DNA from: Candidatus Daviesbacteria bacterium
GTDB taxonomy: Bacteria; Patescibacteriota; Microgenomatia; Daviesbacterales; UBA10151
Reading direction: 5' to 3'
DNA: 64,000 nucleotides
Assembly: GCA_028715175.1 (NCBI GenBank)
Contig: JAQUSJ010000001.1
Span: 472,368-536,367 of the forward strand
Made by a program: the position numbers and the translations under genes. Positions 7,164 through 20,976 of this stretch are shown here, piece by piece. The notes beneath the pieces were generated by a model. The model did not search any database and had not been told where the DNA came from. It saw only the letters and a list, made by a program, of their open reading frames with translations. The first letter of the stretch is position 1; each line of letters begins with the position of its first letter.

Positions 7164-7742
7164 TTAGATTGTTATACCAAGCTTTTTAAGCTTTTCTTTT
7201 AAATCTTGTGGGTTATTAAACAGAATACCCTTCATACCTACGTTTACAGCGCCTGTGATATTGCTTTCTCTGTCATCGATAAATACTGCCTCTTGTGGTT
7301 TAACTCCCAACATCTCAGCTATTAATTGATACATTTTTGGATCAGGCTTTATCATCTTGTGTTCTGTAGAGACAATCATTGCATCAAAAACTTCTTTTAT
7401 ATTAAATTTTTTTAAAAGAATCTTAAGCCACTCTGATATAAAGTTTGATAAAAGACCAATCTTGTAATTCCTCTTTAATTTTTTCATTAACTTATAAACT
7501 TCTTTATTTAAAACAAAAGTGCTAAGAATTTCTTTTTTCACTTGTTTTGCTTCCTTGCCTGATTCTTTTGCAAGGTAATTTAAAAATTGATCGGGAGAAA
7601 TACTGCTGCTGTCAACTTTATAGGAAATATCATGGAAGAAATCTCTCCTTTTTTCAAGATTAGGGATATTTTTATGCAACCAAAGCCAATATGCCTCTGT
7701 CATAATAACTCCTGCGTTATCAAAAATAATGGCTTTAATCAT
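7164..7742 (-). CDS. HAD-superfamily hydrolase
   Basis: 192 aa; motif I FDNAGV (DxD-type) and motif IV FIDDR. Confidence 0.75.
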   Translation of the reverse strand: MIKAIIFDNAGVIMTEAYWLWLHKNIPNLEKRRDFFHDISYKVDSSSISPDQFLNYLAKESGKEAKQVKKEILSTFVLNKEVYKLMKKLKRNYKIGLLSNFISEWLKILLKKFNIKEVFDAMIVSTEHKMIKPDPKMYQLIAEMLGVKPQEAVFIDDRESNITGAVNVGMKGILFNNPQDLKEKLKKLGITI

Positions 7743-7845
7743 TGGGGTAAATATATCACGATTCTAATCCCTAATGGTAGTTATATGCTAGATTTGAAGT
7801 GAAGCTGTACTTGAGTAAAGCATCCCATGCCTGAAGTGTACCTAG

Positions 7846-7880
7846 AAGCTGGTTCTCCTTCGACAAGCTCAGGACTATAG
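7846..7880. repeat. solo copy of the cttcgacaagctcaggac motif (related to the family B TIR region in uvrA)
   Basis: ccttcgacaagctcaggactatag here vs ctttcgacaagctcaggacaagag at 35117-35140. Confidence 0.45.
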
Positions 7881-7955
7881 CAATTCTGAAACACTTGGGG
7901 TACTTATGAGCCCTATAGTTTGCAATTATTTTTCCATTTATAGTATAATTCCTTA

Positions 7956-8645
7956 ATGGCAAATTGCGAACAACAAACAGGCTTTTATGGGTTGGTTTCC
8001 AGAGTTAAAAGCGTGAATTGTAGATGTGGGCCAGGGATAAAATTTAATGATGTTAATCTAGCTAGATGGTATCCTCTAGATGTGCTTTGGAAAATGTTGA
8101 AATCAACAGGCAGGGGTGGAGATATGAGGGATATAGGTGGAACTGCTGTTCATCATGTGATTTATGATGATCAAATTAATGAGGGGGATATCAAATGGTT
8201 AAGTTCCCAATCAAAGTTTGGTTTGGAAAGATTTTTCAATAATTTAATTATTGCAGATGAAACAAGAGTTTTAGAAGTCATAAGGAATGATAGTTTTGCA
8301 TTAGAAAAGCCAGAGAATAAATTACACACATTAACTAGACGTTTGTCAGATTTGTTAGAAGTATTACCACATGGTTTATCAGCTGGATTACTGCTGGCAG
8401 TTGCAAACCCTTATTTTAGGAAGGTAGAGACAATGGATATTTCACAAGCACAGAAGACTCTAAATTATGCTAGAGATGCATTTGTTTTTCTTCCACCAGA
8501 CGCAAGACTTGATATTTTTGGCGAAATGGTTCAACTTTCCCCAGGTCCAAATGGTACTGCACGAAAGTTCTTGAGGTCAGTTGCTTTGAGTAATGGAGAT
8601 GCAGCAATTCCTTATAATGAACTGTTGCAATTAGTAGGAACTTAA
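7956..8645 (+). CDS. hypothetical protein (lysine-poor)
   Basis: 229-aa ORF preceded by a tataat-like box; no motif recognised; lies between tRNA scars. Confidence 0.45.
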   Translation: MANCEQQTGFYGLVSRVKSVNCRCGPGIKFNDVNLARWYPLDVLWKMLKSTGRGGDMRDIGGTAVHHVIYDDQINEGDIKWLSSQSKFGLERFFNNLIIADETRVLEVIRNDSFALEKPENKLHTLTRRLSDLLEVLPHGLSAGLLLAVANPYFRKVETMDISQAQKTLNYARDAFVFLPPDARLDIFGEMVQLSPGPNGTARKFLRSVALSNGDAAIPYNELLQLVGT

Positions 8646-8710
8646 ATGGCGAAAAAGCCTCTTAAGAAAAATTGAAGAAGTTAATGGCACGGAGCCACTA
8701 TTTCTTTTTG

Positions 8711-8782
8711 TGATCCGGCAGGGATTCGAACCCTGGACCAAGAGCTTAAAAGGCTCCTGCTCTACCGCTGAGCTACCGGACC
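8711..8782 (-). tRNA. tRNA-Lys (anticodon TTT)
   Basis: Reverse complement GGTCCGGTAGCTCAGCGGTAGAGCAGGAGCCTTTTAAGCTCTTGGTCCAGGGTTCGAATCCCTGCCGGATCA; anticodon loop CTTTTAA; T loop TTCGAAT. Confidence 0.8.
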
Positions 8783-9030
8783 AAGATATTTTTTAACCAA
8801 TCTCGACCTATATGTGACTTTAGGTACTTTTCTCTTTTTAATGCTTCTTGTCTCGTATTGTACTCTTCCTTATAAACTACATTCCATGGGCCCTTATTTA
8901 TTTTAGTATAGCTTTTAATTTTACTAGGTAACAAACCATTATGTCTTGCTAGTCTACTTTCTAAATTCCCTGTTTGCCCAATGTATATTTTACCAGTTGT
9001 TTTACTCTTAATTACATAAACACTGTACAT
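8773..9030 (-). CDS. GIY-YIG nuclease family protein (YhbQ/UPF0213-like, 85 aa)
   Basis: YVIKS..GKIYIGQTGNLESRLARHN matches the GIY-YIG core; 3' end overlaps the tRNA-Lys 5' end by 10 nt. Confidence 0.8.
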   Translation of the reverse strand: MYSVYVIKSKTTGKIYIGQTGNLESRLARHNGLLPSKIKSYTKINKGPWNVVYKEEYNTRQEALKREKYLKSHIGRDWLKNILVR

Positions 9031-9072
9031 AAACTAATAGAACCAATAGCTTAAAAGTCCGGCTGCGCCGGA

Positions 9073-9094
9073 TCTACCGCTGAGCTACCGGACC
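9073..9094 (-). repeat. 22-bp duplicate of tRNA-Lys(TTT) nt 1-22, followed by a CCGGC/GCCGG hairpin
   Basis: tctaccgctgagctaccggacc is identical at 8761-8782 and 9073-9094; the two copies flank the GIY-YIG gene. Confidence 0.65.
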
Positions 9095-9141
9095 TCGAAT
9101 GTATTGTACTAAATTTAAGCTGGATTTGCTATGATTTATCT

Positions 9142-10104
9142 ATGTTCTTCGGTCTGAACTGGGTTGATTTAGTGATTATCGGAATACTTCTCCTTTTTGC
9201 CCTGGAGGCTTTGGGCCGCCCTTTAATTTTAGAACTATTGGATTTTGCCAGCTTCCTTTTGGCAGGTATCTTATCCTTTAGTTACTACAATCTTCCTGCC
9301 AAATTTTTTGAAAGCCAGTTTCATATTCCCCATGGACTTACCCTGGTGCTGGGTTTTATGACTGTCTGGTTTTTATCTGAAATTGTTTTTTATTTGTTGG
9401 TTAGGTTCATTTTACCAAAGATCCCTAAGTTTAGGATCCTTCGGTCTAAAGTTTTATCTGCAGTTCCGGCAATGCTTAGGAGCTTGATTTTTATTGCCTT
9501 AGTTTTAGTGATGGTGGCAACTTTCCCTATCCAGCCTGCTATTAAAAAAAGCGTTCTGGATTCCAAAATTGGCAGCCGGATATTAAAAGCTGCATACGGA
9601 TTGGAATCTCCTGTCAAGAAAGTTTTTGGAGGAGTGGCTAATGATTCCCTGACTTTTTTGACTATAGAACCCAGGACAAATGAAAAAGTTAACTTGGGTT
9701 TTCAAACTACTCAGGTATCCCTTGATAGCGCTTCGGAAGATAAAATGATTGAGATGGTAAATAAAGAAAGGGTCAGCAGGGGAATCAGGGCCTTAGTGTT
9801 TGACGTTAAGCTTCGGGATATCGCCCGATCTCACAGCGAGGATATGTTTAAAAGAGGTTATTTTTCCCATTATTCACCTGAAGGTCAAACTGTAGCTGAT
9901 CGGGCTTTGAATGCGGGAGTGGATTTTTTGGTAATCGGTGAGAATTTGGCATATGCCCCAAGCGTGGAATTGGCCGGGCAAGGGTTGATGAACTCCCCGG
10001 GCCACAGGGCAAATATACTGTCTGCTGATTATGGAAGAATTGGGATAGGCGTAATGGACGGGGGAGTTTACGGTAAGATGTTTACCCAGGTATTTACAAA
10101 CTAG
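9142..10104 (+). CDS. fusion protein: CvpA-like membrane domain plus CAP/SCP (YkwD-like) domain
   Basis: N-terminal multi-TM region; C-terminal GHRANILSADYGRIGIGV motif of SCP/CAP. Confidence 0.6.
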   Translation: MFFGLNWVDLVIIGILLLFALEALGRPLILELLDFASFLLAGILSFSYYNLPAKFFESQFHIPHGLTLVLGFMTVWFLSEIVFYLLVRFILPKIPKFRILRSKVLSAVPAMLRSLIFIALVLVMVATFPIQPAIKKSVLDSKIGSRILKAAYGLESPVKKVFGGVANDSLTFLTIEPRTNEKVNLGFQTTQVSLDSASEDKMIEMVNKERVSRGIRALVFDVKLRDIARSHSEDMFKRGYFSHYSPEGQTVADRALNAGVDFLVIGENLAYAPSVELAGQGLMNSPGHRANILSADYGRIGIGVMDGGVYGKMFTQVFTN

Positions 10105-10791: not shown

Positions 10792-11274
10792 GTGAAAAAA
10801 TTTGTTATTCAGATCATACTTTTACTTGTATTTATTGTTGGGGGAGTATATTTATATAAATCAAGCGGACAAATTTCCGGTTTGCCTTTTATACCTTCCG
10901 GGCCTGTATTTAAGCAAATACAAATTAACGGATCAAAATTTAATGTTGAAATAGCGGATACGCAGGAAAAAAGAGCTAAAGGTTTGGCCGGAAGAAGTAG
11001 TTTGGCATCGGATTCGGGAATGCTGTTTATTTTTTCCGAGCCGTCTAAACATTCATTTTGGATGAAAGGTCTTTTATTCCCGCTGGATTTTATATGGATT
11101 AGCGGGGATAAAGTAGTAGGTATTTTACAAAATGTTCCGCCGCCTGCTCAGGGTCAACCGGATTCGTCTTTGCCGATTTACCAGTCAAGCGTAGAGGTGG
11201 ATAAGGTTTTGGAAGTTAATGCCGGAGTAGTCCAGCGTTTAAACATTAAAGTAGGGGACATCCTGACTCAATGA
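10792..11274 (+). CDS. DUF192 domain protein
   Basis: N-terminal TM; KGLAGR..L....GMLFIF......FWMKGLLFPLDFIW pattern of DUF192/COG1430. Confidence 0.65.
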   Translation: MKKFVIQIILLLVFIVGGVYLYKSSGQISGLPFIPSGPVFKQIQINGSKFNVEIADTQEKRAKGLAGRSSLASDSGMLFIFSEPSKHSFWMKGLLFPLDFIWISGDKVVGILQNVPPPAQGQPDSSLPIYQSSVEVDKVLEVNAGVVQRLNIKVGDILTQ

Positions 11275-12767
11275 TTGAAGTTCTGCCAATTAGATTACTA
11301 ACAGATGAGGATGCGCCGATTTTCGGCAGCTTAAATTTGAATTTGGCAAAGCTGTTTCGGTCCGGAGTTCCTGTCGGGTCCGGGTTAGTTGTCACGCCGC
11401 CGCAGTTTAAACTCAAAACAGTTTTGGAAAATTATGATTTTGGCACCAAGGAGGTTTTTCAACAGTCTCTGACCCTGGTTAAAAGAGAAATACGTTCAAT
11501 TCCTGTCCCGGATGTTTTAATTAACGGTGTCAACCCAACCCACAGAAATTTTTTGCTTAATGGAGAAAAGATTAGCTCAATTAAAAATCTTTGGTTGAAA
11601 TTATTATCAATTTGGATAGAGCAAATTGAAAACAAGTTATGGAATAACGGATTTTATCCGGGTATTACCAGGGACTTGGATCCGCAGATTGTGATTTTTG
11701 TGAAAAAAATGGAATCCTCAGGAAACGCTTATTATGACCAGTTGCAGGATGATGTAGAAGTTCAAGTAAAAACAGGGAAACTATATCCGAACGATCTCAA
11801 AAAGATTATAGAAATAGTCCAGATAGCCGATAAAAAACTTTTTATCCCTCACGAATATGAATGGGTACTGGATGGAGGGGTAAAATTAGTTGGTCTAAAA
11901 CAATATACTCCTTCTGTTACCATTGAGCCTACCCCTATAGTTGCAGGCTCCAGGGGAACGCCTTGCGAGGCTAGAAACGCCGTTAAAGTATTTCTCGACT
12001 TATCCGCCGGATTGACCTTTGAAAAAGAAGTTGACGGGATATATATCGCATCGGAAAAAATATTTGACCTGGATAACCCTTCGGAATCATTTGAAAATTT
12101 GGTTTCCAGATTAGTAGAAGGAGCTATGACTTTTCCAAACTCCCCTATTTTTTTAAAATTGGCAGATAAGTCAGAAGGTATGGGTAAAGTGCGCGGAACC
12201 TTGCGCTTGCTTCACCAGAAAAGTCTATTTGATCCGTTAGCGAAAGTTTTGGATTTTGCCCGACATAAAAAAGGCTTAACAAATGTTCATATAGTTGTGC
12301 CGTTTGTGAGGGGTGTAACTGAACTGCTGAAAATGAAAAGGGAGCTGGCTGTCCGGAAGCTCTCCAGGAAAAATTCCCTGCAGCTTTGGATGGAAGTGGC
12401 CGTGCCGGAGAATATTGTTAATCTGGAAGATTATCTGGTTGCCGGCATTGATGGGGTGGTTTTAAACCTGGATGAGCTTGTATCTTACTTAAATGGTGTT
12501 GATTGTTCGGAGGAAGATTTAGTATTTTACAAGAGTGAAGTTTCGGGGTTACTTAAGTTTCTGGAAGATGGGATTAAGCTTTTGCATAAGTCAAAAGTCC
12601 CTTTCATGGTCTATGGCAGCTTGGTTCTTACCCCAAAAGTGCTGGAATTTTTGGTGGAAAAAGGGGTTTATGGAGTGGTAGTGGAAAAATATGAAGCTCA
12701 CTCAGCTAAGGATTTACTACATCAAGCAGAAAAAAGGATGATTCTAAAAAGAGTGGATAGAATATGA
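11271..12767 (+). CDS. PEP-utilising enzyme family protein (PPDK_N-like ATP-grasp plus C-terminal TIM-barrel domain, no central phosphohistidine domain)
   Basis: N-terminal FGSLNLNLAKLFRSGVPVGSGLVVT resembles G.K.aNL..l...GvpVP.GF; C-terminal VVLNLDELVSYL resembles fSIGTNDLTQ; no GGxTSHAAI motif. Confidence 0.45.
   Translation: MIEVLPIRLLTDEDAPIFGSLNLNLAKLFRSGVPVGSGLVVTPPQFKLKTVLENYDFGTKEVFQQSLTLVKREIRSIPVPDVLINGVNPTHRNFLLNGEKISSIKNLWLKLLSIWIEQIENKLWNNGFYPGITRDLDPQIVIFVKKMESSGNAYYDQLQDDVEVQVKTGKLYPNDLKKIIEIVQIADKKLFIPHEYEWVLDGGVKLVGLKQYTPSVTIEPTPIVAGSRGTPCEARNAVKVFLDLSAGLTFEKEVDGIYIASEKIFDLDNPSESFENLVSRLVEGAMTFPNSPIFLKLADKSEGMGKVRGTLRLLHQKSLFDPLAKVLDFARHKKGLTNVHIVVPFVRGVTELLKMKRELAVRKLSRKNSLQLWMEVAVPENIVNLEDYLVAGIDGVVLNLDELVSYLNGVDCSEEDLVFYKSEVSGLLKFLEDGIKLLHKSKVPFMVYGSLVLTPKVLEFLVEKGVYGVVVEKYEAHSAKDLLHQAEKRMILKRVDRI
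11946..11972. repeat. family A hairpin element copy 4, in-frame inside the PEP-enzyme-like CDS (encodes GSRGTPCEA)
   Basis: ggctccaggggaacgccttgcgaggct. Confidence 0.65.
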
Positions 12768-13303
12768 CAGAAGGCGAAATAAATCCAGAGGCGCCAGTAC
12801 ATGATTTAGCGCGCCGTAATGAGTGGTTAAGGAGAGAAGGACCCAACCATGGAATTGACCCTGAAAAATTTTTTCTGGGAGAGACGTTAGATACTGTTTT
12901 GGTTAGAATTTTAGATGATAGAAATTGCTTTTCTTGGCATAGACCACAGGATGATTTAGAAAACCCCGAGCGATTTCCAAGCGAGGCTCCTGGCGCGCGT
13001 ATGGACTACCTGGGACGTTTAGATGGAGAAATTGATACGTTAGATAGAGAGATTAATATTGTAGCGCCACTTTCAGAAATAAGTGCGGAGTTGAAAGGAA
13101 TAAGAGAGGATGTAAGATTAGCTGATTGGACAGTCAGAGACCAATTCTCCAGTGCTTATGGAAGATGGCAAAAATTAAGTGATCGGGTGGGAGAAATAAT
13201 TAAAGAAAATCCCGAACTTCAGGAAGCATCCGAATACTATATCAACAATATGGATAAGATTGCCAAATTATATTCAGCTTCATCCGGGCAAACGGAAGAT
13301 TAA
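12764..13303 (+). CDS. hypothetical acidic protein
   Basis: 179 aa; start overlaps the upstream stop (ATGA); 3' end overlaps convergent rsmI by 24 nt; K-poor and R/E-rich, unlike neighbours. Confidence 0.4.
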   Translation: MTEGEINPEAPVHDLARRNEWLRREGPNHGIDPEKFFLGETLDTVLVRILDDRNCFSWHRPQDDLENPERFPSEAPGARMDYLGRLDGEIDTLDREINIVAPLSEISAELKGIREDVRLADWTVRDQFSSAYGRWQKLSDRVGEIIKENPELQEASEYYINNMDKIAKLYSASSGQTED

Positions 13304-14386: not shown

Positions 14387-14767
14387 CTAATGATCTTCTG
14401 GCTGTAATACTTCACTAACTTGTTTAACAATATCAGCAAGTTTGACTTCGCTTTTAACTAAAAAGTCATAAACTCCAATCTCTATTGCTTCAGATACTTT
14501 CTTTTGGTCGCTTAAATTCGACAGAATAATTACAGGTACTGTTTCTCCCCATGGATCTTGGCGAAGTTTTTTCAACATGGTCAGACCGTTCATTTTGGGC
14601 AATAGAATATCGAGTAAAATTAAATCCGGTAAGTTTTGTAAAGCCTTTTTTATGCCATCTTCCGCACTGGTGGCCTCACTAACAATAAAGCCGGAATCTT
14701 TAAATTTGTCAGACAACAGTTCCAAAAGTACCTGTTCGTCTTCAATGATTAGAATTTGTTTTTTCAT
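14387..14767 (-). CDS. stand-alone response regulator receiver domain (CheY-like)
   Basis: 126 aa; ILIIEDE, phospho-acceptor D in LILLDILLP, and conserved K in KSEV; no output domain. Confidence 0.85.
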   Translation of the reverse strand: MKKQILIIEDEQVLLELLSDKFKDSGFIVSEATSAEDGIKKALQNLPDLILLDILLPKMNGLTMLKKLRQDPWGETVPVIILSNLSDQKKVSEAIEIGVYDFLVKSEVKLADIVKQVSEVLQPEDH

Positions 14768-16674
14768 ACTGCGAAAGGAAGCATCACCATAAAAGTACTT
14801 CCTTTATTTACCTTCGATTCCACAATAATATTTCCCTTTAGATAATTTACCATAGCTTTGGTGATATACAAGCCCAGCCCGGTGCCTTCAACTCGATTTT
14901 TAACATTATTAGCCCGATATATTTTTTGGAATATCTTTTCTTGGGCTGATCTTGGAATACCAATGCCAGAGTCGGTAACTTGTAAAATAAGTTTATCATC
15001 TAATTTCTGTATTTTTAAGCGGATCCAACCACCGCTTGATGTAAATTTGACAGCATTAGACAGCAGGTTTCTTAAAATTATATAGATGGCGTTTGAATAA
15101 GTTTTGTATGGTTTAATATCTTTGTCAAAGAAAAAGTTAAATTTTATTTTTTTATCCTTAATTCTGTCTTTTAAGTTTTCAATAACATTTGAAGCAATCT
15201 CGATAGGATCAATTTTTTCGTGTGTGTATGAATGCACACCCAGTTCGATTTTGGTGGTGGTTAATAGGTTGCTGGTTAGTTCAATCATGTTTTGGGTTTG
15301 TTTATATATTTTATCTAAACTTTTCTTTTGTGAGTTAGAATAGAGATTTTGGTCTTCGAAAAGGCGTTCCAAAGACCAGGCTACAGCAGAGAGTGGAGTC
15401 CGCAGTTCGTGCGAAGCCAGGGAAACAAATTCGTCTTTAGCCTGGTTAATTGCCAGTTGCTGGCTATAATCACGATAAACGCTAATAGCTCCTACTATGG
15501 CATTATCCAAAATCACCGGTGAAGAAGTAATAAGTAGAGGGAATTTATCTTTTTTAACCAGGAAATAAACTCCGCGAACTACTTGAGCGGTATTCAGCGC
15601 TAGTAATGTAGGATGCAATTCAGAAGGTATTAAATTATCTTGTTCGTCTTCCAGCTCCACTTGTTTAAAAATCGATTTGCCTAATATCTTTTGTACATTC
15701 CAGCCAAATAAGTCTTCGGTTTTTCTATTTGCCTTAATGATCACTCCATATTTATCAACAACTATTATTCCATCCCCGATACTTTCAAATAAAGCTTCTT
15801 GTTTGGCAAGCATTTCCTCTAAGGAATTATTTAAAAGTTCTAGTTTTTGGGCATAGTTAGTAAGCTGTTCTTCAGCTTTTTTAAGCTCGGTGATATCATG
15901 GGTCATGCCTATGGATTTAATAACCGTACCTGATTTATTTTTAATATGCTCGCATTTTTCGTGTACAATTCGGATTTCACTGGTATTTTTTCTAATAATC
16001 CGGTGAATTATTTCGTAGCCATCTAATTTTTTACGAAGGGATTCAGTATATGCAAGGTTTACTTTTTCCCGGTCATCAGGGTGGACTGTTTTAAGAAAAG
16101 CTTCATAAGTGGCTTTAAATTCTTGAGGTTTTAGACCAAATATCCGGTAGGCCTCATCCGACCAAGTTAATTTATTATTTAAAAGATCAAGTTCCCAACT
16201 GCCTAACTGAGCAATTTCCTGAGATCTTTTAAGTAGCCTTTCGTTCTCACGCAAGGCCTCCTCGGCCTGTTTGAGTTCGGTGATGTCCTGATTCATGCCA
16301 ATCCATTCCAAAACTTTGCCATTCCCGTCAAAAATCGGTACAGCGGTACTTTTAATAATTCGGTATTCTCCTTTGGCATTTAATTGTCTAAATTCAACGC
16401 GAGAAGGGGTTTTTGTCTTTAAACGGTGGCGCCAGACTTTTTTAAGGAGGTTTCTATCGTCCGCATGGACGGCAGAGAGCCAATTCCAACCAAGAAAATC
16501 CTTGTATTTTCTGCCGGTAAAAATTCGCCAAGATAGTGAGTCTTCGATAATACCTCCGGAAGCATCAGTCACCCAGATCGCCTCGCTCGAGACTTCGATC
16601 AGCCGCCTGAATCTCTCTTCGCTTCTTCTCAAAGCCTCTTCGGACTTAGTTAGTTTAGTATTTAAGCTTTTCAT
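14764..16674 (-). CDS. cytoplasmic multi-PAS sensor histidine kinase
   Basis: 636 aa; three PAS-like repeats; HisKA H-box HELRTPLSAV; HATPase_c N/G1/G2 boxes (LLSNAVKFT, DSGIGIP, GTGLGLYI); no TM segments. Confidence 0.9.
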   Translation of the reverse strand: MKSLNTKLTKSEEALRRSEERFRRLIEVSSEAIWVTDASGGIIEDSLSWRIFTGRKYKDFLGWNWLSAVHADDRNLLKKVWRHRLKTKTPSRVEFRQLNAKGEYRIIKSTAVPIFDGNGKVLEWIGMNQDITELKQAEEALRENERLLKRSQEIAQLGSWELDLLNNKLTWSDEAYRIFGLKPQEFKATYEAFLKTVHPDDREKVNLAYTESLRKKLDGYEIIHRIIRKNTSEIRIVHEKCEHIKNKSGTVIKSIGMTHDITELKKAEEQLTNYAQKLELLNNSLEEMLAKQEALFESIGDGIIVVDKYGVIIKANRKTEDLFGWNVQKILGKSIFKQVELEDEQDNLIPSELHPTLLALNTAQVVRGVYFLVKKDKFPLLITSSPVILDNAIVGAISVYRDYSQQLAINQAKDEFVSLASHELRTPLSAVAWSLERLFEDQNLYSNSQKKSLDKIYKQTQNMIELTSNLLTTTKIELGVHSYTHEKIDPIEIASNVIENLKDRIKDKKIKFNFFFDKDIKPYKTYSNAIYIILRNLLSNAVKFTSSGGWIRLKIQKLDDKLILQVTDSGIGIPRSAQEKIFQKIYRANNVKNRVEGTGLGLYITKAMVNYLKGNIIVESKVNKGSTFMVMLPFAV

Positions 16675-17984
16675 ACTTTCATCTCTTGATATATCCTAGA
16701 CTCTTTTCCTTCGTGATGAAGAAGAGTTCTGAATCCGCCGTCACCAAAGATATGGCGAAATCTTAAGTGGTTAAGAATATACCTTTGCGAAACCACAAAT
16801 GGTTCTAACTCCTCAAGTTTAATCAGTCCTGCTTCTATAGTTTCACTACCTTCCGGTAGAAAAAAGTAAGTCTGTAAAACTGGTATTTTAGCTTGAGCTC
16901 CTTTCCTTTCAAGAACTTCTGATATTCTTACACCAAAATTCATTGAGGCAATGTCTTCGTCTGAAAAGCCCACTGCTCTCATTGCTGCGGAACGGGTAGC
17001 TCTGCCTTCTGGAGTTAGGAATTGACTTATTAGCTTGTTGTAATCACCTGTTTTAGCAATCCCAATCTCCGCAATGTGACCGGGTCGAATGATGCCACCA
17101 AAAAGATCAGCGGTGTATTTAGGAGGATTATTAGTAACTGTATTTCCGTAACAGATATTCACTACTCCCGGCTGTTCTGCTAGTTGTTTATATCTGTTTT
17201 TATCTGGTAAATTTTTCAATTCTTCAAACTTTTTATGTATACGTACAATTTCAACGTTATCACCAAAAGCCGCTTTTAGATTTTTAGAAGACTCCCTAAG
17301 CATGTCCATACTACAGTCAATTATCACTACAGTCACCTTTCGCCCGCTTTCCACGACTGCTCTCAAACGTTCAATTTCTTTCTGACAATCACCTGGGCCA
17401 TAAATACAGTAAACAGTTGGATTTCTACCAAGATATTGAGCTAGATCTCCGTTCGCGTCTTTAACGCCAAGCGCTTTGGCTTGGTCTTTTTCGTCCGCAT
17501 TGCTTTTTTGGCGATTAGCTGATGCTAAGAATTGAAGCATAAGCCGTCCGGAATCTTTAGCCCTAGTCAACGCCCAAGAAGGTATGTTGCCATTGCAAGC
17601 GTAGAATAAAAATGCCGGACTCTTCAAGGATCTGCCAATTTTCCGAGCCCGTTTATACTCTAATAATCTACCAAACATACCTTCAGGCGAGAAATGCATT
17701 TCTCTTCTTTCTTCTGGTATTTTATTTATATAGTACTGAATCATATCCAAATATGGTCTACGAACATTTGGATGTAGTTTGACGAAAGTAAGTTCACATA
17801 ACTGCGATAGAATAGTATTATCCCGCAAAAATGGTGCCCATATCTCACGAAGGCGAGGATAATTAGGATCAGCTTCTAAAATCGGTCTAGCTTTCTTCGC
17901 CTGATCACTTATGGGTAATAGTTCGACAGGTTTTTTAAATAGGACAGGTCTTTCGGGACTTCCACCAAAATTTACTGCATACAT
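16671..17984 (-). CDS. Methyltransf_33 (EgtD-like) SAM-dependent methyltransferase homologue with a ~190-aa N-terminal extension of unknown function
   Basis: CIYGPGDCQKEIERL....VTVVIIDCSMDML resembles ELGSGsseKtr.LL....YvPvDIS; ICYGNTVTNNPP resembles FLGSTIGNLtP; recalled from memory, not searched. Confidence 0.4.
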   Translation of the reverse strand: MYAVNFGGSPERPVLFKKPVELLPISDQAKKARPILEADPNYPRLREIWAPFLRDNTILSQLCELTFVKLHPNVRRPYLDMIQYYINKIPEERREMHFSPEGMFGRLLEYKRARKIGRSLKSPAFLFYACNGNIPSWALTRAKDSGRLMLQFLASANRQKSNADEKDQAKALGVKDANGDLAQYLGRNPTVYCIYGPGDCQKEIERLRAVVESGRKVTVVIIDCSMDMLRESSKNLKAAFGDNVEIVRIHKKFEELKNLPDKNRYKQLAEQPGVVNICYGNTVTNNPPKYTADLFGGIIRPGHIAEIGIAKTGDYNKLISQFLTPEGRATRSAAMRAVGFSDEDIASMNFGVRISEVLERKGAQAKIPVLQTYFFLPEGSETIEAGLIKLEELEPFVVSQRYILNHLRFRHIFGDGGFRTLLHHEGKESRIYQEMKV

Positions 17985-17986
17985 TT

Positions 17987-18628
17987 CTACTGATACTCCT
18001 TTTTTAATAATTCAAAGTTTGGAATAGTGATAAAACGGTTGTGGTAAATAATCAGCTTTTTGTTTATGAGATTATTAATTTCAATGGTAACCCGCTCGCG
18101 CGACAATCCAGCCAAAGTGGCAATGTCCCGATGGGTAAACCAGTACGAAATTACTATGCTTCTTTTGTCCTTTTTTCCAAAATATTTAGCCAGATCCAAA
18201 ATAGTGGCTATCACTTGTTTCCGGGCATCACCAAAAATTTTGGTTTCCAACTTTTTCATAAGTTCTAAAGAAAGCGAGGTTAATTGTTGGGTTATTTCTG
18301 ATCTAGCTGCCGGATTTTTGGTTAAAAATTGATATAGCTTATTTTTTTCGCATGAATAAACTTCAACCGGTGTTAAGGACTCAAAGTAATAACCATTAAA
18401 GTCCCCATTATTCTCTAACCAAAGAGGGAATAGGGAAGAAGGAGCAAATATGTGAAGCGTCAATTCGTTTCCTTCTTGCGATAAGGTATAAAGTCTGACA
18501 TAACCCTGATTTAGATAAAAAACTGTATTTGTAGAAGTTTCCAATCGACCTACCTCCTGTTTTCTTCTGAAAAGCATAGGTTTAAATTGTTTCAAGAAAC
18601 TTTCCAGTTTAGGATACGCTGTATTCAT
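17987..18628 (-). CDS. Crp/Fnr family transcriptional regulator
   Basis: 213 aa; N-terminal cNMP-binding beta-roll; C-terminal HTH (RDIATLAGLSRERVTIEINNL). Confidence 0.8.
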   Translation of the reverse strand: MNTAYPKLESFLKQFKPMLFRRKQEVGRLETSTNTVFYLNQGYVRLYTLSQEGNELTLHIFAPSSLFPLWLENNGDFNGYYFESLTPVEVYSCEKNKLYQFLTKNPAARSEITQQLTSLSLELMKKLETKIFGDARKQVIATILDLAKYFGKKDKRSIVISYWFTHRDIATLAGLSRERVTIEINNLINKKLIIYHNRFITIPNFELLKKEYQ

Positions 18629-18764
18629 CTATAGAGAGATTACAAGAGAAAGTGTCAGGGCGAGTATAACACTTTAAGCGTTTAGCCTACAACCTAAAAG
18701 TCTTCCTCTATTTTCTGCTATATTTATTTTTAAATTTAATCTATACTGGTGACAATGTTATTTC

Positions 18765-18780
18765 TGTAATCTAGATCACA
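18765..18780. promoter_or_regulatory. CRP-consensus-like site TGTAATCTAGATCACA (TGTGA-N6-TCACA, 1 mismatch)
   Basis: Lies in the divergent crp/dedA intergenic region, about 140 bp upstream of the crp start. Confidence 0.5.
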
Positions 18781-18784
18781 AATT

Positions 18785-19393
18785 ATGCTGGAAATTGTGG
18801 CAGGGTGGATCATTGATGTTATCTCAACTCTCGGATATCCGGGCATTGTTATTACCATGGCTATTGAATCAGCTTTGATTCCGTTGCCTTCAGAAATTAT
18901 CATGCCATTTTCTGGCTATCTGGTATCTACAGGCAGGTTTGATCTTAACCTGGTGGCTTTGGCAGGAGCTTTCGGCAATGTTTTAGGGTCGTTAATTGCT
19001 TATGCTATCGGTTTTTATGGACATGAAAAATTAGTCAGAAGATTTATCAGAAAATTCGGCAAATGGATTTTAATTAGCGAAAAAGAGTTGGATGAAACCG
19101 AAGTTTTGCTTCATAGATTTAAGGATTTGGTAGTTTTGGGAAGCAGGGTGATACCGGGGATTAGGACAGTTATTTCCCTGCCTTGCGGGTTTGCAAAGCT
19201 GCCTTTGGGGAGGTTTATAGCATTAACTTTTATCGGGTCGCTTGTCTGGTCATATTTCCTGGCCTGGATTGGGTTTGTTTTAGGGCAAAACTGGAGAACA
19301 ATTGGCCCATATTTCCACAAAGCAGATGTAGTGATAGTGGTACTAATTATTGGAGTAGTTACCTTTTACATTTATCACAAAGTTAAAAAATAA
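18785..19393 (+). CDS. DedA/SNARE-associated (TVP38) family membrane protein
   Basis: 202 aa; GYPGIV...IES..IPLPSE..MPFSGYL DedA signature; multiple TM segments. Confidence 0.85.
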   Translation: MLEIVAGWIIDVISTLGYPGIVITMAIESALIPLPSEIIMPFSGYLVSTGRFDLNLVALAGAFGNVLGSLIAYAIGFYGHEKLVRRFIRKFGKWILISEKELDETEVLLHRFKDLVVLGSRVIPGIRTVISLPCGFAKLPLGRFIALTFIGSLVWSYFLAWIGFVLGQNWRTIGPYFHKADVVIVVLIIGVVTFYIYHKVKK

Positions 19394-19421
19394 ATTCTCA
19401 AAGGTTTCTCAATCAGGGTAA

Positions 19422-20786
19422 TCAGGGGATTTCTTGATCTGAATCCCTCCTCTCTCGATTCTCCCTCTCTCGCAGTTCAAGTAACTCCTGCATCGCTTTA
19501 CGATTACTCTCTCGCATTCGATTTCTCCACGACGTCTTATTATGTGCAGTTTTTGTATTTTGTTTTGTACCCTCTCTATGGGCTTTGTAAAATGGATAGT
19601 CATTTTTTATATCTCCATCTCCTGCAGTTTTTGTTCCTGGTGCTTGCAAACTACTTAAGACATTGGCCAAAAAATCCGGATTACTAAAGGCATTATGAAG
19701 ATTAACTAAATCTGTGCTGCGTTGATGCTTTCCGTGACCTAAATATGGCCATGCATCAACCTCTTCCATATATCCTGTATGGAATTTAGTTACCTCTACC
19801 ACCACAGCTATTCTTGGTTTACTATCACCGGTTGTTTGCCTAACTGCTATTGTTAGATATAAATTATCTTTTGTCTCTTCTGGCGTAAAACATTTTCCCA
19901 ATCTCATGCTTTCGCTTTTTTGATCGCATTGCCTCGCAAATTCAGCAAGATCAAATCCTGCAAATTTTAACTCAATTTCCCCATTCTGCAATAATCTAAT
20001 ATCAACCGGAATCCAAGTTCCTTCGAGAGGGAAAACTGCTCTTCTAGTCTCCTCACCTGCCGCCATTTCATTGCGTACAGGGCGTACAGGATAAGTTTGA
20101 ATCCTATCCCGCAATTCATCAAGAACTGCTTGGGGAGTATCCACAGTCGTTTTTGGAGTTTCTTGAGTGTTTGTTTCCTTCATCAGGTCTGCTGGGTTGA
20201 CTAGTCTGCCATTACTGACTACCTCTCTCCATCTGGCCGGCAGACTGAGTGGTCCAATGTATAAGCACTTATTTTTTGGATCATCAACCATCAGTAGTAC
20301 ATCATTTGATCCTAGACGTATTGCATCTATAGGCGGTGAGTTACTAGTTCTAATGCTAATTCCTGGTGGATTTCTTAATTCTGACTCAGATATTCCAGGC
20401 AACAGAAATAGTTTATTGGAATCTTCTACTTCTTCTGGAATAGGTAAAATAACAGAACTATTCCAATTAGGCAATACTTGCCTTATATTTAAAAAAAGAC
20501 TTTTATTGGTATCCCAAACAGAGTGATATCTAACTTTGGCTATTACTAAGCCACTAACAGATTCTGGGCAATCAGTAACAATTATTACTGGTAAACCCCC
20601 TAATCCTTCCATTTTCTGTAAAGCTGGAGTTGTCTCAGTACCTTGTTCCATAACGACTGTGGGAAAAAGAATCTGTTTAGGATCGATGTTCTTCACAAAA
20701 GGCCTACCTCGGAGTACTGCAGCTTCTCCTCGTATTCTCCTTGTAACTATATCAAGCAGACTAGCGTTTGATGATGTTTCTACCAT
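19422..20786 (-). CDS. hypothetical protein (454 aa, lysine-poor, Arg/Glu-rich C-terminal tail)
   Basis: Long ORF with non-native composition; no motif recognised; sits between the dedA 3' end and its diverged duplicate. Confidence 0.5.
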   Translation of the reverse strand: MVETSSNASLLDIVTRRIRGEAAVLRGRPFVKNIDPKQILFPTVVMEQGTETTPALQKMEGLGGLPVIIVTDCPESVSGLVIAKVRYHSVWDTNKSLFLNIRQVLPNWNSSVILPIPEEVEDSNKLFLLPGISESELRNPPGISIRTSNSPPIDAIRLGSNDVLLMVDDPKNKCLYIGPLSLPARWREVVSNGRLVNPADLMKETNTQETPKTTVDTPQAVLDELRDRIQTYPVRPVRNEMAAGEETRRAVFPLEGTWIPVDIRLLQNGEIELKFAGFDLAEFARQCDQKSESMRLGKCFTPEETKDNLYLTIAVRQTTGDSKPRIAVVVEVTKFHTGYMEEVDAWPYLGHGKHQRSTDLVNLHNAFSNPDFLANVLSSLQAPGTKTAGDGDIKNDYPFYKAHREGTKQNTKTAHNKTSWRNRMRESNRKAMQELLELRERENRERRDSDQEIP

Positions 20787-20832
20787 AATAATTTAAGATA
20801 AGATCGGATGATATCTTATAAGGTGAATTTAG

Positions 20833-20918
20833 TCAACATTTCTACAAAGCAGATGCAGCAATAGTGATTTTAATAATCGGAGCAATCATTTTCTATATCT
20901 ACCACAAGATTAAAAACT
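20833..20918 (+). repeat. diverged duplicate of the dedA 3' end (encodes FYKADAAIVILIIGAIIFYIYHKIKN*)
   Basis: About 73 percent nt identity to 19310-19393 (FHKADVVIVVLIIGVVTFYIYHKVKK*); same orientation. Confidence 0.7.
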
Positions 20919-20976
20919 AGGGATAATCCACAGTTTCTACCATCAGTTTCTGTCACTACGTTCAGGATGACAGTCT

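Follow-up and report, generated by a model that had tools for sequence, protein, structure and literature searches.

Why should a gene for a putative methyltransferase lie inside what otherwise looks like a compact signalling operon? The locus in question is found in the window, by which we mean the whole 64,000-nucleotide stretch of a Candidatus Daviesbacteria contig that was analysed. We tentatively suggest, with a confidence that stops somewhat short of even, that the operon specifies a two-component pathway with a cognate pair of enzyme and sensor at its center; the comparisons described below are pointing to that pair as a previously undescribed signalling unit.

The operon and its regulatory genes

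Four minus-strand open reading frames (18628-17987, 17984-16671, 16674-14764, and 14767-14387) follow one another with one 2-nt gap and then two 4-nt ATGA overlaps, the layout given in the original prediction. The first (17987-18628, minus strand) encodes a Crp/Fnr-family regulator of 213 aa, in which the HTH_Crp_2 match (34.9 bits) lies above its cutoff and the cNMP_binding match (27.3 bits) is borderline, falling just below the cutoff of 27.5. The regulator is 98% identical to its counterpart in L020, a second Daviesbacteria genome, and 55% identical to that of locus L012. A Crp gene is confined to the CPR versions of the module; locus L001 also holds the C-terminal tail of a Crp.

The third gene (14764-16674, minus strand), which overlaps each neighbor by 4 nt, encodes a sensor histidine kinase of 636 aa with the domains PAS1, PAS2, PAS3, HisKA (47.9 bits), and HATPase_c (88.6 bits), and with an H-box, HELRTPL, at residue 422. 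It had been described as a soluble protein with three PAS domains. All three are matched, and the maximum Kyte-Doolittle hydropathy is 1.56 over a 19-residue window, a crude test that argues against a transmembrane helix. The last gene (14387-14767, minus strand) encodes a CheY-like, stand-alone receiver of 126 aa, 96% identical to that of L020 and 68% identical to that of L012, with its phospho-acceptor Asp in the context LILLD; Response_reg (88.8 bits) is the sole domain found, in keeping with the claim of a bare receiver that has no output domain. With an H-box His, a HATPase_c domain, and, in the receiver, a phospho-acceptor Asp, the pair has the features of a classical two-component system. 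The operon contains no small precursor open reading frame and no transporter gene. Among the PADLOC anti-phage models, none matches the enzyme, and the kinase and receiver match generic HATPase and REC parts only.

A CRP site had been proposed about 140 bp upstream of crp. An imperfect CRP/NtcA-like palindrome, TGTAATCTAGATCACA, is indeed present at 18765-18780, within the 156 bp that separate crp from a divergent VTT/DedA gene and 137-152 nt ahead of the crp start codon, but it is statistically unremarkable and finds no comparative support. It is one of three one-mismatch matches in the window, where 1.44 are expected, and at least three occur in 15 of 100 shuffles. The start codon of the divergent VTT/DedA-type gene (ATG at 18785) follows its end by 4 nt, and its center is at about -116 relative to the transcription start predicted from the best candidate -10 element, an extended -10, TGtTATACT (18663-18668, minus strand), with TTGTAG 18 nt upstream of it. 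This element is a consensus match only, and a generic promoter scan gave a chance-level result. In L020 both half-sites are kept and the central spacer differs at one position (TGTGATCTAGATTACA versus TGTGATCCAGATTACA, crp strand); because the intergenic regions are identical at 153 of 156 positions, this comparison has no footprinting power. Upstream of the Crp gene of L012, the only independent four-gene locus, the palindrome has no counterpart. As a Crp operator, then, the sequence at 18765-18780 is neither conserved, nor statistically distinct, nor at a functional distance from a promoter, and a function for it is unsupported.

An EgtD-like methyltransferase

The second gene (16671-17984, minus strand) encodes a protein of 437 aa that is predicted to be a divergent SAM-dependent methyltransferase of the EgtD fold (Methyltransf_33-like). 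Both of the motifs first noted in it are there: YGPGD at residues 195-199, a GPGD-type motif I, and GNTVTN at residues 280-285. A Pfam or HHpred match to Methyltransf_33 was expected. The fold is borne out and an hhalign comparison with a canonical Methyltransf_33 member gives a probability of 93.5%, but the direct match to the Pfam model (PF10017) is below threshold, at 19.2 bits against a gathering cutoff of 23; three relatives exceed the cutoff (P0003, 42.7 bits; P0007, 34.0 bits; P0008, 47.9 bits). The 15 top Foldseek matches to the predicted structure are all EgtD, aligned along the whole chain, and the alignment spans 285 residues with EgtD as against roughly 200 with generic methyltransferases. 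In other words, the protein has the class I Rossmann core together with the substrate-binding elements that are specific to this family.

Three residues, G198 of SAM motif I, the β2 acidic residue D223, and N285, are invariant in eight full-length members. The region of G198 and D223 aligns to EgtD motif I; the other glycines of this motif are degenerate in some alleles (window, GPGDC; L020, ASGEG). In the profile alignment the GxT..N block of the family, ygstaaNfdP, sits on lGSTIGNLTP of EgtD. In structures of EgtD, N166 contacts the α-amino group of the substrate, and the characterized Methyltransf_33 enzymes known to us, namely EgtD, EasF, and tyrosine betaine synthase, have free amino acids as their substrates. 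Judged from its fold and these residues, the 437-aa protein is EgtD-like and probably active. It had been predicted to be an EgtD-type enzyme with a substrate outside ergothioneine synthesis, and both halves of that prediction agree with what we find. The protein scores 17.1 bits against the EgtD equivalog TIGR03438, whose cutoff is 290.9, and its identity to EgtD is only 12-14% despite the same fold type. EgtD binds the histidine side chain through residues such as E282 and S284, and by eye the C-terminal motif seems to differ (VVSQRY against EVSCKF). The 34 open reading frames scanned in the window include no EgtB, EgtC, or EgtE domain (FGE-sulfatase/DinB, amidotransferase, or class V aminotransferase), as had been claimed of egtB, egtC, and egtE, and domains of these types are absent from the related loci as well.

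The original prediction also held that an N-terminal domain of 190 aa was unexplained, and here it has to be cut back to about 100 aa. Residues 101-175 (17460-17684, minus strand) form a conserved N-module, PEG..LL...NP.F...LP.SW..G..M..L, which belongs to the EgtD fold: the structural alignment covers the whole EgtD chain, and this segment is EgtD's own N-terminal segment. Residues 1-100 (17685-17984, minus strand), an extension that EgtD lacks, are helical and modeled with low confidence (pLDDT 30-68), and they are poorly conserved (scores of 0.04-0.52 versus 1-1.7 elsewhere); they are the sole part of the methyltransferase that the EgtD fold does not explain. Unlike EgtD, the window protein is coupled to a histidine kinase and has homologs that exist as split N-module and core proteins. 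Nine matches, P0009-P0017, cover the N-module only, and in the archaeal split loci L017, L024, and L027 this module is on a separate polypeptide, the division falling at profile position 164/180.

PAS1 and the enzyme across loci

The enzyme family is tiny, with 17 matches among 1.84 billion representative proteins. In seven of the eight distinct loci with a fused enzyme (the window, L001, L020, L008, L002, L012, and L009), the enzyme gene is followed by a PAS kinase gene across an invariant junction of overlapping stop and start codons (ATGA in four cases, TAATG in two, and a 20-nt overlap in one). The linked loci belong to a few uncultured organisms, among them CPR bacteria and, on at least one contig carrying ribosomal S8e, L37e, and LSM genes, an archaeon; their enzymes are 28-49% identical. 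A receiver gene adjoins the kinase gene in the window, L020, L012, and L002, four of the five loci where the contig extends past the kinase; in the fifth, L009, the only nearby receiver is that of another kinase pair, located upstream. L012 and L020 show precisely the same order of all four genes, and L001 shows part of it. The genes are therefore not independently distributed, and the proposed module of Crp, enzyme, and phosphorelay does recur, but with Crp only in its CPR versions. By these comparisons, the conserved core is the enzyme together with PAS1, the domain at the N-terminal end of the kinase. Family members with no kinase at all are found at L013 and at the three split archaeal loci, and the enzyme must therefore have a kinase-independent role. 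We found no description of an EgtD-like enzyme arranged with a PAS kinase in the literature searched, in line with the earlier remark that the arrangement was not known as a described system.

PAS1 (kinase residues ~13-140; 16255-16638, minus strand) is of a subtype that is orthologous in every kinase following a methyltransferase of this family. It is 56-74% identical across the loci, a level above that of the enzymes, and only 35% identical to PAS2 of the same kinase. Between the window and L002 and L009, PAS1 is 58-62% identical and the kinase core 29%; these cores differ in class (HisKA and HisKA_2/HWE), and the receivers of such loci are 28-33% identical to that of the window. A search begun from PAS1 returned two new loci with high-identity PAS1 domains, both with the enzyme, and two PAS matches at 30-32%, both without it. 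In sequence, PAS1 follows the enzyme rather than the kinase chassis. Its strong conservation fits one common ligand and fits a conserved protein-protein interface equally well, and its closest relatives of solved structure come from structural genomics, under names that point to no ligand.

The pairing is seen again when near-identical genomes are compared. The window and L020 are syntenic, with flanking DNA that is 94-97% identical, and a cassette made up of the methyltransferase gene and kinase codons 1-92 (16399-17994, minus strand) has no nucleotide similarity to L020. The breakpoints are sharp, both in the blastn blocks and in the junction alignments, and the bordering DNA is 96.5% and 97.4% identical. 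At the protein level, identity is 98% for Crp, 98% for PAS2, 100% for PAS3, 96% for the kinase core, and 96% for the receiver; inside the swap region it is 29% for the enzyme and 70% for PAS1, with 61% in the part of PAS1 that was swapped. The cassette has a GC content of 39.7-46.0%, compared with 35-36% in the flanking operon genes. In the one pair of near-identical genomes from which the replacement is known, a single block containing the enzyme and most of PAS1 has been exchanged. Because the breakpoint on the downstream side falls within PAS1 (codons ~93-108), away from a domain boundary, the N-terminal part of PAS1 may have hitch-hiked, with conserved PAS1 DNA serving as a recombination arm. 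Both the orthology of PAS1 and the block replacement become visible only through comparison, and hence they were absent from the first reading of the sequence.

Possible functions of the enzyme-sensor pair

In the pathway that we tentatively favor, the EgtD-fold methyltransferase would carry out SAM-driven N-methylation of a small amine or amino-acid substrate, one other than histidine as the precursor in the ergothioneine pathway. PAS1 of the kinase encoded directly downstream would read the metabolite, whether product, substrate, or a bound cofactor derived from it; the state of the ligand would set the level of kinase autophosphorylation; and the phosphate would pass to the stand-alone receiver, which would act on a protein partner. 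Transcriptional control may come, in the CPR versions, from the Crp-family regulator, the product of the first gene. The enzyme and PAS1 move as a pair, which in bacteria and archaea has been grafted onto kinase chassis of different kinds and which has been replaced as a unit between near-identical genomes.

It is conceivable that an ordinary two-component system simply stands beside an unrelated biosynthetic methyltransferase and that the divergent segment is a neutral horizontal replacement, but we think this extremely improbable. The family occurs without kinases too, the replacement is seen in one genome pair only, and its breakpoint in a conserved domain could be a mere recombination arm; the overlapping-codon junction nevertheless persists in seven loci, from CPR bacteria to at least one archaeal contig, among widely diverged enzymes, and PAS1 is orthologous on unrelated kinase chassis. 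That the loci are recent copies of a single mobile element is disfavored by how far they have diverged and by the differences in their flanks, and since the junction recurs and PAS1 is orthologous, chance adjacency cannot give the pattern. A CheR-like adaptation system, in which the enzyme methylates the kinase (PAS1, for example) or the receiver, seems highly unlikely: there is no match to CheR or CheR_N at E ≤ 1, EgtD is clearly the best fold match with extra substrate-domain elements, the Asn that binds a free α-amino group in EgtD is retained, and kinase N-termini are not conserved from locus to locus.

Two further readings give the methyltransferase a protein partner. It could be a methyltransferase-like accessory co-sensor that binds PAS1 directly and reports its own SAM/SAH or substrate occupancy to the kinase, much as stand-alone H-NOX proteins act on their kinases, with no diffusible product, a reading that we regard as unlikely but credible. 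Production in fixed proportions would suit the stop/start overlap of all seven loci, an interface would suit the conservation of PAS1, and the replaced block took in the enzyme along with two-thirds of PAS1, counted from its N-terminus. The N-module, however, which is the most conserved block of the enzyme, is at least as conserved in the kinase-less split archaeal loci, which means that PAS1 binding does not account for this conservation, and the SAM-binding and Asn166-equivalent residues are invariant, as in a working enzyme. Alternatively, the methyltransferase could be the target, switched by the phosphorylated receiver or the kinase, perhaps via its N-terminal extension, in response to an unrelated PAS cue. 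A receiver that has no output domain must act on a protein, the extension is variable, and the receiver directly follows the kinase in four loci. We nonetheless consider this quite improbable, since the kinase of L009 has no following receiver, conservation alongside the enzyme is seen for PAS1 and not for the receiver, and the tracking and co-replacement of PAS1 and enzyme are left unexplained.

A more specific form of the enzyme-sensor pathway, in our judgment improbable, would make the cassette a signal synthase and its receptor, present in one Daviesbacteria species as alternative alleles that are mutually incompatible and that are exchanged when the conserved Crp and kinase flanks recombine. 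If this were true, the operon would be a small-molecule, cytoplasmically sensed analog of the comQXP and agr pherotypes, and it would suggest kin or partner recognition in ultra-small CPR bacteria and DPANN-like archaea. The agr loci of staphylococci (agrBDCA) show the same pattern of pherotype divergence as comQXPA. In comQXPA of Bacillus, the modifying or synthesizing enzyme and the signal-reading N-terminus of the kinase are hyper-divergent in close relatives, while the kinase core and regulator are conserved (PMC4008528). The window and L020, as one genome pair, match these systems in having a hyper-divergent enzyme and sensor segment between conserved flanks. Unlike them, the window operon has no gene for a peptide precursor or an exporter, its sensor is a cytoplasmic PAS domain rather than a membrane domain (no transmembrane segment is predicted in the kinase), and just two alleles have been observed on a single backbone, with the swapped part of PAS1 still 61% identical. 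The secreted signal that characterizes comQXPA and agr is not evident in the window operon, which gives no sign of secretion or specificity groups.

A precedent for the enzyme-sensor pathway is that genes for ligand or chromophore synthases adjoin sensor kinase genes in bphO-bphP, tal/pcl-pyp, and cqsA-cqsS. There, too, an enzyme gene stands beside a sensor gene in a conserved operon arrangement, and the product is bound by the PAS or sensor domain. We know of no link between the class of EgtD-fold N-methyltransferases and any sensor kinase, and the literature searched ties none of these enzymes to one. Stand-alone H-NOX proteins control neighboring kinases, and the H-NOX/histidine-kinase operons likewise encode a soluble stand-alone protein, which modulates its kinase, just upstream of a soluble kinase. 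H-NOX is a heme gas sensor with no enzyme fold, whereas the partner encoded in the window keeps its catalytic-type residues.

The operon and its setting

The four minus-strand genes of the operon lie head to tail, joined by one 2-nt gap and two ATGA overlaps, as the original prediction held. They encode a 213-aa Crp/Fnr regulator (18628-17987; HTH_Crp_2 at 34.9 bits, cNMP_binding at 27.3, just below 27.5), a 437-aa EgtD-fold, methyltransferase-like protein assigned by structure and profile comparison (17984-16671; hereafter the enzyme, its catalysis being predicted), a 636-aa sensor kinase (16674-14764) and a 126-aa receiver (14767-14387). Pfam and NCBIfam bear out the predicted architecture of the kinase, with three PAS domains, HisKA and HATPase_c, as well as the bare receiver, which carries no other domain; the kinase also appears to be soluble, as had been claimed, in that a strongly hydrophobic 19-residue stretch is absent (maximum hydropathy 1.56). 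The flanking genes encode a divergent VTT/DedA-type membrane protein, LexA, an ECF sigma factor and an RsmI-type methylase. Just past the RsmI-type gene (11271-13303) lie two overlapping ORFs, the first for a 498-aa protein in which only a weak PEP-utilising-enzyme C-terminal domain is recognised, the second, overlapped at its start, of 179 aa and without a family match. We found no riboswitch or other structured RNA, and no known defence-system signature for the operon.

A CRP-type site had been proposed upstream of crp. The site is present (18765-18780), but statistical and comparative support for it is absent. Three matches of this quality occur in the window vs 1.44 expected by chance, and this one lies 4 nt from the ATG of the divergent gene and ~116 nt from the inferred transcription start of the operon. 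It has no counterpart upstream of the Crp gene of locus L012, and L020, a locus in a second Daviesbacteria genome, provides no footprinting power because its intergenic region is identical to that of the window at 153/156 positions. Given the chance-level count, the distant placement and the lack of an L012 counterpart, we rejected the operator as unsupported. L012 carries a different palindrome, TTGAT-N8-ATCAA (1055-1080), ~25-45 nt before its Crp ATG and unlike the CRP-like site of the window.

Fold and modular construction of the enzyme

The resemblance to EgtD and Methyltransf_33 that the original prediction noted stands at the level of fold, profile and motif alignment, but not of direct Pfam scoring, where the protein reaches 19.2 bits vs a cutoff of 23; a single-sequence PDB search returned just chance LOV-domain matches (E ~1). 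A search of 5.8 billion clusters gave a single relative other than the protein itself, and the family is extremely small: an exhaustive profile search of 1.84 billion representatives gave at least 17 matches, a lower bound because that search did not list the L020 allele, which nevertheless matches the profile at E 1e-70. Three relatives exceed the Methyltransf_33 cutoff, at 34-48 bits. With an eight-member profile the best PDB family is EgtD (E 3.6e-4), and the family's G-x-T-x-x-N block falls on the GSTIGN block of EgtD. Structure prediction from a 2-sequence alignment gave a pLDDT of 37.6, and from a 17-sequence alignment a pLDDT of 81.5 and a pTM of 0.79; the top 15 Foldseek matches to the latter model are all EgtD, with 319 columns aligned on a 318-residue chain (TM 0.74). 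G198, D223, N285, P288 and G302 are invariant in the eight full-length members. A role in the ergothioneine pathway was rejected, the EgtD equivalog score (NCBIfam) being 17 bits vs a cutoff of 291 and EgtB, EgtC and EgtE domains being absent, as predicted, from the 34 window ORFs scanned. Taken together, the profile, the model, the invariant residues and the absent partners argue for a predicted enzyme of EgtD fold that acts outside the ergothioneine pathway.

The "unexplained 190-aa domain" described at its N-terminus is better divided into ~100 residues of true extension and a portion of the EgtD fold that can be encoded separately, since residues 1-100 show little conservation and low model confidence, residues 101-175 (the N-module) match the catalytic core in conservation and lie inside the region that Foldseek must cover to align EgtD over its full chain, and the N-module also occurs by itself, at the C-terminus of the family proteins P0009-P0017. 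The N-module is probably EgtD's own N-terminal segment, an assignment that rests on structural coverage; the hhalign alignment with one canonical Methyltransf_33 protein is confined to the core (163-318) and speaks neither way. In three archaeal-type loci (L017, 6383-9392; L024, 278-3830; L027, 112-2574) the family profile divides at position 164/180, and a gene for a 259-271-aa catalytic core is accompanied by two or three N-module genes whose products have variable N-terminal regions and end in the conserved N-module. This arrangement suggests that one core pairs with alternative partner subunits and that substrate choice in the EgtD fold can be changed in modular fashion. No kinase lies near these split loci; an AsnC-type regulator gene is close by on the opposite strand in L017 and L024, L027 being too short to show whether it has one.

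The enzyme and PAS1 across loci

The four-gene order is found in L012 (enzyme 28% identical to that of the window) and L020, and in part in L001, where a Crp tail, enzyme (49% identical) and PAS kinase run to the contig end. The full order does not extend further: Crp is confined to the CPR versions, and L013 and the split loci are without a kinase. L002 has the enzyme, a PAS kinase of the HisKA_2/HWE class and a receiver; L008 the enzyme and a PAS protein, then the contig end; and L009, archaeal because its contig carries ribosomal S8e, L37e and LSM genes, the enzyme and a 1015-aa PAS kinase. The enzyme stop codon overlaps the kinase start codon in all seven kinase-linked loci. As judged by gene order and sequence comparison, the conserved functional unit appears to be the enzyme plus the kinase's first PAS domain, PAS1, with Crp seemingly a CPR-specific addition and the receiver usual, not universal.

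The first ~130 residues are orthologous in every kinase that follows a family enzyme. PAS1 is 56-74% identical in pairwise comparisons across loci, vs 28-49% for the enzymes and 35% for PAS1 vs PAS2 inside one kinase; compared with L002 or L009, the window is 58-62% identical in PAS1, 29% in the kinase core and 28-33% in the receiver. A PAS1-side scan of one genome per species returned a single high-identity locus, L020, with the enzyme, and two ordinary PAS matches (30-32% identity) without it; a metagenome scan re-found only L004, a copy of the P0003 locus (L002 is another), again with the enzyme. The window PAS1 differs from all six others at otherwise constant positions, HPDD/HPED becoming HADD and GTAVP becoming STAVP (16390-16500; kinase residues ~59-95 and 106-110). 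Elsewhere in the kinases, a Cys-rich PAS-like domain (GKKCYE.YR...KQC.NCPLK), absent from the window kinase, is 70% identical between L012 (CPR-like; residues 278-392) and L009 (residues 403-517), the catalytic cores being only 30% identical; it seems to mark a further domain-level exchange between CPR and archaeal lineages.

Gene order in L020 follows that of the window throughout the neighbourhood. Amino-acid identity is 91% for the sigma factor, 99% for LexA, 95% for the DedA-type protein, 96% for RsmI, 98% for Crp, 98% for PAS2, 100% for PAS3, 96% for the kinase core and 96% for the receiver, vs 29% for the enzyme (437 aa in the window, 459 aa in L020) and 70% for PAS1. DNA identity is 96.5% up to 17995, undetectable from 17994 to 16399 and 97.4% from 16398 on, placing one junction in the last Crp codons, at the ribosome-binding site of the enzyme, and the other at PAS1 codons ~93-108. 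GC content is slightly higher in the replaced segment (39.7-46.0%) than in the flanking operon genes (35-36%). This block replacement is seen in one genome pair, the sole carriers of this backbone in the collection. An assembly artefact was rejected because the contigs are long (744 kb [743,708 bp] and 137 kb), the assemblies independent and the overlapping reading frames intact across the junctions. A second variable spot lies beside the operon (window 19394-20976, L020 1481-2173): the interval from LexA to the DedA-type gene holds, in the window, a 454-aa minus-strand ORF (19422-20786) with no Pfam or PADLOC match and, in L020, an unrelated 148-aa ORF, although the genomes are otherwise 94-97% identical.

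Possible roles of the pair

The operon represents a real, rare signalling module of bacteria and at least one archaeon, of which we found no description in the literature searched; nor did we find there a paper combining Methyltransf_33 with a histidine kinase. It is a variant on the two-component theme, the mechanism of which we infer. PAS domains are sensors of ligands or cofactors, and operons that place a synthase next to a sensor are known (bphO-bphP, cqsA-cqsS). For these reasons, and because the enzyme retains the residues of a small-molecule N-methyltransferase, we tentatively favor the possibility that the enzyme makes or alters a ligand that PAS1 senses, a reading we hold at slightly under even chances. 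The main rival, in which enzyme and PAS1 form a direct protein complex, we consider unlikely.

A pherotype-like reading of the window and L020 alleles is more doubtful still. In comQXPA, ComP varies in the part that reads the signal, with ComA and the ComP kinase domain staying conserved (PMC4008528); the window and L020 are similar in that a divergent sensor segment sits on a conserved kinase core and receiver. However, PAS1 is cytoplasmic, the operon has no exporter or precursor, one breakpoint falls inside PAS1, whose conserved sequence could simply have acted as a recombination arm, and there is a single genome pair; we therefore think this reading improbable.

If the synthase and sensor reading is correct, the EgtD-type protein would be a new enzyme class among the few dedicated ligand-synthase/sensor pairs, and would suggest N-methylated amines or amino acids as a new class of small-molecule cue. 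Since the block replacement offers the same chassis with either of two natural cognate pairs, specificity is directly testable. CPR bacteria, with their very small genomes, rely on other cells, and their sensing and signalling are poorly understood, so that a 4.4-kb operon kept in a genome with a contig of only ~0.74 Mb is notable; the recurrence of its core in at least one archaeon is likewise notable. In that archaeal locus, L009, the stretch immediately upstream of the enzyme gene (7490-9924) encodes a MEDS-domain protein and a further kinase-receiver pair. L002 (12640-14248), like L003-L005, carries a second Methyltransf_33 gene of canonical length (300 aa) together with an HTH_10 regulator, convergent to the receiver of the module.
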